A stretch of DNA of 63,388 nt, counting the filler, from Stramenopiles sp. TOSAG23-6 (taxonomy: Eukaryota): assembly GCA_900128565.1 (NCBI GenBank). It is 51 parts of 51 records of this genome, joined end to end, with 100 filler letters (N's around TTAATTAATTAA, not from the genome) between each part and the next. Parts side by side here need not be neighbours in the genome. Positions count along the whole stretch, not along the records: positions 59,780 to 60,916 come from LT639644.1; 50 more parts are not named here. One strand, 5' to 3'. The notes under the pieces were generated by a model. That model was not told where the DNA came from. It ran no database searches and was given only the letters and a program-made list of their open reading frames with translations. Numbering within the stretch: position 1 is the first letter of the stretch; each line of letters opens with the position of its first letter. The position numbers and the translations under genes were made by a program. This document shows positions 59,916-60,829 of the stretch, one piece after another.

Positions 59916-60829
59916 ATGAAATTCAAATGTTTCAGAGAATACAATCAAATGTGGCAACGTTGATGTCTCATATTGAATCGTTCGAAATTTGGGGTAATTT
60001 AGAAAATATCGAATTGTCAAGAGATGCAAACAAAATACGAAAATCAGTTATTTCATCTCTTTTATTATTATCAAGAGCATGTATGTTTTTTTTTTTTTTT
60101 TGAATGATTTTTTGTTTTTTTTTACGAAATTTTGTACCTAACGATATTTTTTTTTTTTTGAAATATTTTTCCAAAATAAATGTGGTCCGAAACACAAATG
60201 GATAGAATGGTTACAAATTAAACAAAAAGAAGAAAAACACAAAATAGAAAAAATAACAAAAAAGAAAAAAAAGAAGCGAAAAAAAAAATTCAAGTCAAAT
60301 ATTTCAGTTGTATTTGAACCTACTACTTATCATACAACAAAAAAAGACTTTTCTTTACATACTACAAATGCAACAAATACAATAAATGCAACAAATGATA
60401 ATACAAAAAACACAAAAAACACAAAAATCACAAAAAACACAAAAAATACAAAAAATACAAAAAATACAAAAAATATTAAAAATGTCGCACAACGAGCAAC
60501 AAACAAGTTAAAATTATATGTAAAATCTACACATTTGCGAAAACAATCTGACACCACAATGTCAATGCAATTAGCTATTTGGCATGTATGTTTTTTTTTT
60601 TTTTTTTACAAAAAAGTCGAATTTTTTTTTTCATAGTAAATTTTGTACCTAACAAAAAATTATAAAAATATATTCTTTCACAATACATTTAGGTATTGAA
60701 GATTTTATTGAGGAAATATTAAAAATCCCAATGCATCATTTAATGGCACGAAATAATAAGGGTGAAATTGTAGTAAATCATAGTACTAGGGTTAGGGATA
60801 CTCAAGAAGAAGAAAAAATGGACATACAT
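59916..60829 (+). CDS. Hypothetical Lys/Asn-rich protein, three exons (GT-AT introns 60081-60181 and 60586-60688)
   Basis: The frame is continuous through both junctions with AT acceptors; the nearby AG at 60691-60692 leads to a stop. Confidence 0.7.

Follow-up and report, generated by a model that had tools for sequence, protein, structure and literature searches.

Where does an intron end when its conserved 3´ box closes on AT and an AG lies only four bases downstream? The question is raised by a 103-nt stretch between the second and third exons of an orphan gene, which begins with GT at 60586 and meets the last base of its box at 60688. The AG at the end of introns is among the most constant signals of eukaryotic genes, and more than 98.5% of the major introns in most genomes are reported to be GT-AG (10.1101/2022.09.24.509304, in the portion of its text available to us). 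The flagged intron is nevertheless probably spliced after the AT at 60688. The stretch itself is likely to be a spliceosomal intron, one of a single introner-like family that would account for most introns of this AT-rich marine eukaryote. That the box, and not a scan for AG, sets the acceptor is supported at the level of the genome and probable for the flagged intron, to which the rule extends by analogy only.

The window, the whole stretch of 63,388 bases analysed here, consists of 51 contigs of ~1.14 kb that are sorted by length and joined by linkers (N...TTAATTAATTAA...N); adjacency across linkers therefore has no genomic meaning. The contig of the flagged intron spans 59780-60916. The DNA of the window has a G+C content of ~30% and eukaryotic coding content, encoding Sec24, an ABCD transporter, WDR19/IFT144-like and IP3R/RyR-like proteins, and WD40, PDZ and ARID domains. 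The top database match of the Sec24 exon is 99% identical and bears the source name 'eukprot:GSMAST32.ASY1.ANO1.2368.1 assembled CDS', a label which suggests that the organism is a MAST-3 marine stramenopile.

The flagged intron and its gene

The elements of the flagged intron are found where the first-pass annotation had placed them (Table 1). The donor CAT/GTATG(T) lies at 60586, its phase is fixed by the 134 whole codons of 60184-60585, and the box CACAATACAT ends at 60688, followed by TTAG/GTATTG with an AG at 60691-60692. The consequences drawn from this arrangement also agree with the frame count, in which the AT acceptor gives an exon open for 47 codons up to the donor at 60830 and the AG acceptor runs into TAA after 9 codons. 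The upstream frame ending in TGG CAT is open for 148 codons versus 11 and 3 codons in the other two frames, and an open run of this length has a chance of ~8e-6 at the base composition of the window. Downstream of 60688, 57 codons are open, of which 47 reach the donor at 60830 before the frame reads through into the next intron.

Table 1. Features of the orphan-gene locus and of the control introns with homologues (a slash marks a splice junction)
Feature	Position	Strand	Details
Exon of orphan gene	59916-60080	+	directly after a CACAATACAT box (59906-59915); ends ...AGAGCAT/, one split-codon base
Upstream intron, 101 nt, ends AT	60081-60181	+	GTATGTTTT...TTGTACCTAAC (60132-60142)...CCAAAATAAAT/
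Middle exon, 2 nt + 134 codons	60182-60585	+	Lys/Asn/Thr-rich, low complexity; ends ...TGG CAT/
Flagged intron, 103 nt, GT...AT (AT end probable)	60586-60688	+	placed by donor, box and frame count
5´ splice site	60586-60594	+	GTATGTTTT, exon CAT before it; placed by motif
Extended branch box	60643-60653	+	TTGTACCTAAC; presumed branch A 60652, 36 nt before intron end
3´ box	60679-60688	+	CACAATACAT; last box base is the probable last intron base
Downstream exon, 47 codons	60689-60829	+	LGIEDFIEEILK...MDIH; from AT acceptor to next donor
First AG after branch box	60691-60692	+	in TTAG/GTATTG; use leads to TAA after 9 codons
In-frame AG, alternative acceptor	60711-60712	+	offset +24; exon from 60713, 49 codons open
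Next family intron, start only	60830-60916	+	GTATGTTTT; branch box 60885-60895; cut by contig end
Sec24 control intron 1	10753-10965	-	GTATGT...TTTGTAT/; AT end by collinearity
Sec24 control intron 2	10183-10385	-	GTATCT...TACAATACAT/; AT end by collinearity
ABCD-type transporter control intron	16791-16952	+	GTACGC...CACAATTTAT/
IP3R/RyR-like control intron	48867-49005	-	GTATGT...CTACAATACAT/; AG 10 nt downstream out of frame

The AG at 60691-60692 is presumably skipped in the flagged intron, because its use would end the protein within those 9 codons. The claim that an AT acceptor is needed is too strong for the flagged intron taken alone, because an in-frame AG at 60711-60712, which had been overlooked, also leaves the downstream frame open (49 codons). 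Splicing at this in-frame AG would shorten the product by 8 codons. Counted from the branch A, such an acceptor would be 60 nt away, as against 36 nt for the AT, a distance within the 34-45 nt range seen in 15 of 18 introns of the family.

The flagged intron discriminates less cleanly than its upstream neighbour in the gene (60081-60181), after which every AG within 60 nt produces a stop at the junction codon. The box of this neighbour ends in AAAT and links an upstream frame of 100 codons to a downstream frame of 150 codons. The AGs in question lie at +24, +48 and +51, and no usable in-frame AG is present between its branch box and +60.

The gene stands without known relatives in the searches made. 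None of its three exons belongs to a Pfam family, and the downstream exon (60689-60829) has no homologue among longer proteins or among 1.84 billion representatives. A 28-nt exon stretch has no match in metagenome contigs; three matches to a 19-nt stretch of the branch box, found there at a GC content of 0.38-0.44, are unrelated and were set aside as chance. No transcript-derived protein of this organism was found for this exon, for the Sec24 exon (searched among longer proteins only) or for the WDR19/IFT144 exon, the top match of which is 55% identical. Among sequencing runs, three seawater metatranscriptomes share 0.05-0.09 of the sampled words with the window, proportions too small to serve as evidence.

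A repeated intron family and its signals

Alignment of the copies at their branch boxes brings out a single design, an intron of ~100 nt, in brief GTAYGT...TTGTACCTAAC...ACAATAYAT. The full layout runs from (CAT)/GTAYGTTTT through a T-rich stretch, CRTACGAAATTTTGTACCTAAC, a variable T/A stretch and often GAAATATTTTT to YCACAATAYAT/. Three blocks are conserved, namely the 5´ site (CAT)/GTAYGTTTT, the 11-nt branch box TTGTACCTAAC and the 3´ box TTTTYCACAATAYAT; an alignment of 16 introns that contains them has a mean column identity of 51% and 22 invariant columns. With at most one mismatch, the branch box is present 46 times in the window versus 0.9 expected, and CACAATACAT is present 27 times versus 7.8 expected, none of 100 shuffles containing more than 14 copies. 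The introns of unrelated genes thus share sequence over their whole length, as introners do. The term introner-like refers to this resemblance by sequence, and mobility is putative. In two introns (27582-27670 and 27924-27989, both +), the branch-box block is tandemly duplicated, with two copies of TTGTACCTAAC 55-78 nt apart.

For 21 introns, both flanks lie within the contig, and the donor GT of GTAYGT and the end of the box were fixed by motif alone. The base counts at the 5´ site are C 13, A 13 and T 17 in the exon, followed by G 21, T 21, A 20, C/T 10/10, G 16 and T 19 in the intron; the donor is GTATGT in 8 cases, GTACGT in 6 and another hexamer in 7, two of these being GTATCT. At the 3´ end, the counts are A 19, C 15, A 19, A 18, T 19, A 13, C/T 11/8, A 20 and T 20, so the site departs from the usual pyrimidine-A-G at its last base only. 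The dinucleotide at the end of the box is AT in 19 introns, TT in one (17666) and AG in one (45320), and the last intron base is not absolute in the family. The two exceptions are the intron at 45320-45439 (-), the box of which ends in CAG, and the intron at 17572-17666 (+), the box of which ends in TTT and the preceding exon of which also ends in TT. The presumed branch A lies 34-45 nt before the end of the box in 15 of 18 introns and 56, 67 and 98 nt before it in the others; because this distance varies, the site follows the box and not a fixed spacing. The core of the branch box we take to be the yeast consensus with one extra C.

The upstream exon ends in AT in 11 of the 21 cases and in T in 17, where most eukaryotes prefer AG. 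The resulting symmetry between exon end and intron end may be a target-site duplication left behind when an element inserted, or it may stem from what the splicing machinery prefers. The two termini of the consensus are complementary to each other (ATGTAT / ATACAT). Pairing of the intron ends was considered as a site-defining mechanism and rejected: no covariation links the two ends of an intron (permutation p = 0.94, n = 21), and although 7 of 10 minimum-energy folds contain a terminal helix, the stability of the folds is no better than that of shuffled sequences (z from -2.4 to +0.9). Near-identical copies of the family are located at several contig ends, which suggests that the repeats break the assembly.

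Reading frames and homologues across the junctions

In 17 of the 21 introns, splicing at the end of the box puts the longest open frame on the upstream side in phase with the longest one on the downstream side, whereas one third is expected (binomial P = 1.0e-5). The four that do not fit comprise a tie (17572), a near tie of 28 versus 25 codons (54910), an intron whose exon is interrupted by Ns (29698) and Sec24 intron 1, for which the homologues show a 60-codon frame to be the right one and not a 65-codon frame. In only 3 of the 21 could the first AG that follows the branch box serve as acceptor; in 8, the stretch from that box to +60 contains no in-frame AG at all.

Four AT junctions can be compared with homologues, two in Sec24, one in the ABCD transporter and one in the IP3R/RyR-like gene, and all four are gap-free. 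The Sec24 exon translations match human Sec24A (PDB chain 8hr0_B). Exon 1 ends at residue 166 of this chain and exon 2 begins at 167, with its residue 119 at 285; three further codons and the split codon of exon 2 correspond to 286-289, and exon 3 begins at 290. In the ABCD gene, exon residues 7-76 align with 80-149 of Pfam PF06472, residue 77 and the split codon with 150 and 151, and the next exon with 152-262. This intron has an in-frame AG at +9 that collinearity does not call for. The IP3R/RyR exons cover 4-39 and 40-84 of PF08454, such that the last residue of one is 39 and the first of the next is 40. In each single intron the cut position is ambiguous by a few bases, and comparison by hand leaves GT...AT as the only pair of boundaries that fits both Sec24 introns and the flagged intron together. 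For the exon pairs of the ARID, WD40, PDZ, IQ and reprolysin genes, the Pfam matches are too weak or too one-sided for a test of the junction. The earlier proposal that the acceptor is set by the conserved box and not by scanning to the first AG is therefore supported across the window, by the frames joined at the box ends, by the introns that offer no in-frame AG and by the four gap-free junctions.

Two other readings of the boundaries were discarded. A shift of both borders by two bases, to AT-AC, is feasible only where the exon ends in AT (11 of 21) and is excluded for both Sec24 introns, in which it would alter residues that match the relative. An antisense artefact, GT-AT being the reverse complement of AT-AC, does not apply, as the coding strand is fixed by homology of Sec24, ABCD and RIH_assoc.

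Gene-finding programs assume an AG acceptor, and the public gene model of Sec24 can be compared with a close relative at exactly these introns. Spliced at GT..AT, the product gives a gap-free alignment of 194 columns with the relative P0002 (966 aa), 165 of the columns being identical. The deposited model P0001 (Sec24 contig, 10013-11162, -) has a 30-residue insertion and a 6-residue deletion against the same protein, both located exactly at the two Sec24 introns; it holds ~30 intron-translated residues and lacks six conserved ones. Because the errors fall at both GT..AT junctions, the annotation pipeline evidently disallowed such introns, and gene sets of this assembly are probably affected more widely. 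The model P0001 also runs past the last donor into the next intron.

Alternative readings, known systems and the assembly

The main rival for the flagged acceptor is the in-frame AG at 60711-60712. The exon would then begin at 60713, the protein would lack the eight residues LGIEDFIE and the AT would be a coincidence. The offset of this AG, +24, keeps the frame open for 49 codons, and no homologue of the downstream exon was found that could contradict it. It would nevertheless require that two earlier AGs (60692 and 60701) be skipped, and its 60 nt from the branch A compare with 34-45 nt in 15 of 18 introns; moreover, in all four homologue-checked introns the exon starts immediately 3´ of the box, and the ABCD intron remains gap-free with the AT acceptor despite its in-frame AG at +9. 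We consider this reading quite unlikely. Far less probable still is that the open frames around 60586-60692 are due to chance or belong to a pseudogene that needs no acceptor. The lack of a Pfam family and of a homologue for the third exon, the low complexity of the middle exon and the fragmentary single-cell type of the assembly, with its artefacts, would fit such a reading, but three consecutive exons are bounded exactly by family donors and boxes and are open only in the joined frame, and the 148-codon run is itself a ~8e-6 event in this composition. Excision from DNA as mobile or eliminated elements (IES- or MITE-like), cut between short AT repeats, is equally improbable. The exon ends before the donor (AT in 11 and T in 17 of 21) mimic a short direct repeat, the consensus termini are complementary and the elements are repetitive enough that contigs break within them; against this, the AT repeat is missing in 10 of 21, the two ends do not covary, all copies are sense-oriented to the coding frame, and a donor-like GTAYGT and a branch-like CTAAC occupy the places that the spliceosome requires.

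A further alternative concerns the machinery and not the splice site: the AT acceptor would be real, and removal would be carried out by an expanded, transformed minor (U12-type) spliceosome, as in Physarum. Long, near-invariant 5´ and branch motifs and tolerance of a non-AG 3´ end are hallmarks of the minor type. In the available text on Physarum, the pair GT-AT accounts for 17% of the 1,014 non-canonical U12-type introns, and a U12 snRNA has co-evolved with an altered branch motif (10.1101/2020.10.12.336362); hundreds of minor introns are reported, in the part of the source at hand, from the stramenopile Blastocystis (10.1101/2022.09.24.509304). The signals of the present family argue in the other direction. 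The TATCC core is present in none of the 21 donors, two of which have GTATCT, and the minor donor [G/A]TATCCTT, as given in the Physarum text, matches none of the 21. The branch box, a less decisive signal, agrees with the U12 consensus TTCCTT[G/A]AC of the same text at only 6 of 9 positions by hand count (10.1101/2020.10.12.336362). The U12 consensus places this motif within ~45 nt of the 3´ end; here the distance spans 34-98 nt, with 15 of 18 introns at 34-45 nt and the other three at 56-98 nt. GT-AT introns are here the majority class instead of a minority. Genes for U11, U12, U4atac and U6atac are absent from the window, which says little for 58 kb of readable sequence. A minor-type machinery thus appears unlikely.

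Under the preferred reading, that of a major-type intron with a box-defined end, ligation would take place directly behind the final T of the 3´ box, giving an intron that ends in YAT, and AGs a few bases past the end of the box would be ignored. Removal would proceed by RNA splicing on a major-type spliceosome, and the flagged intron, if it follows the family rule, would yield the product ...AIWH/LGIEDF.... The sequences of the donor and of the CTAAC-type branch box fit the major type. The box might be read, speculatively, by a diverged U2AF-like protein or through an snRNA contact. An Rfam search of the window returned no snRNA gene, a result of little weight given ~58 kb of readable sequence; all families stayed below their gathering scores, and the four matches obtained (E up to 0.5) were at chance level.

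The family resembles yeast-type major GT-AG introns in its invariant GT, its GTATGT-type donor, a CTAAC-type motif tens of bases before the 3´ end, and a pyrimidine at -3 and A at -2 of the 3´ site. The donor carries GT in 21 of 21 introns, with A at +3 in 20, G at +5 in 16 and T at +6 in 19; the branch motif is present, with the branch A presumed, whereas an AG end is found in only 1 of 21. Unlike major introns, the family has T as the last base in 20 of 21, a 3´ box of 10-15 nt and nearby AGs that are skipped, and unlike in intron-poor yeasts, introns are numerous (46 branch boxes in 63 kb). With minor U12-type introns the family shares long, rigid 5´ and branch motifs, non-AG ends and a documented boundary pair, GT-AT being listed for minor introns of animals in the available text of 10.1101/2022.09.24.509304; it differs from minor introns in lacking the TATCC core, in its longer branch-to-3´ distance and in having GT-AT as the main class and not as a fraction of a percent.

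To our knowledge, the introners described so far use canonical boundaries. Families of introners are reported to be widespread in aquatic eukaryotes (PMC9860276, PMC12130899, as far as their accessible text goes), and an aquatic organism in which introns of unrelated genes share their whole length fits that pattern. In the tunicate Fritillaria borealis, 95% of introns escape GT/AG, and duplicated, diverged U2AF subunits are reported to bind the non-canonical 3´ ends (PMC13326754, available portion). The departure from a 3´ AG is genome-wide in both cases, and the U2AF of Fritillaria is a plausible model for the reader of the box. Fritillaria has given up the 5´ GT as well; here, all 21 introns retain it and a single 3´ dinucleotide dominates. 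Non-canonical borders and complementary ends recall the nonconventional introns of euglenids, as far as these are described in the accessible text of PMC4770533, from which the family differs by its fixed, spliceosome-like borders and by the lack of a stable helix and of covariation.

GT-AT is already known as a rare boundary pair of minor introns, as the sources available to us state. What is probably new is a variant of the spliceosomal intron that runs from GT to AT, has its 3´ site defined by a box and belongs to an introner-like family. A full-text search of the literature retrieved no genome with GT-AT as its main intron class and nothing on MAST-3 introns, a provisional result as supplements and most subscription journals were outside the search; searches for the branch-box motif gave unrelated matches only. 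In the accessible text of MAST genomics papers, the word 'splice' is absent from PMC5778133 and bioRxiv 10.64898/2026.04.17.719054, and 'intron' is absent from PMC12614181 and PMC8163842.

The broader proposal is that YAU has replaced YAG as the standard 3´ splice site throughout a marine stramenopile lineage, by way of a proliferating family of ~100-nt introners whose box, and not an AG scan, directs ligation, and that AT is likewise the favoured end of the upstream exon; it has in our estimate an even chance of being correct. A shift from YAG to YAU would imply a co-evolved change of the spliceosome where the last intron base is read, with a U2AF-like factor or the contact of the first and last intron bases in the catalytic core as candidate parts. 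If AT is the norm in a free-living, globally abundant group of protists, the group would provide a natural experiment on recognition of the last base in the second step, and a repeated intron family could bring its own definition of the 3´ site. The proposal would also explain poor gene models in these single-cell genomes, and re-annotation with GT-AT allowed should recover many proteins. For one MAST-3 assembly, the authors mention too few complete protein matches to train a gene finder (PMC5778133, available text).

The assembly has several peculiarities of its own. The contig at 58542-59679 is a perfect palindrome with 569-nt arms that are 100% complementary and separated by 0 nt, a type of chimera that arises in single-cell whole-genome amplification. 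Contigs with identical ORFs are present in three copies at 1-3656 and at 29984-33618 and in two copies at 38689-41072, and, judged by matching lengths of the N-free pieces, 24998-27391 is also present twice. Such artefacts, palindrome and duplicated contigs alike, would not generate a consistent AT end. At 21640-21700 (-) and 20576-20618 (+), long ORFs lying side by side switch frame with no intron signal between them, owing to either sequencing frameshifts or real breaks. At 46139-47278 (-), a cysteine-rich ORF contains a block of ~180 residues twice in its translation, which may be a tandem repeat or an assembly duplication. Telomere-like (AACCCT)2 units are found at 25 sites versus 0.01 expected (for example, 30205-30222, 34005-34016, 57608-57625, 28223-28234 (-) and 53223-53234 (-)); some lie within open frames with NPNP runs and others within introns (28207 and 53343).
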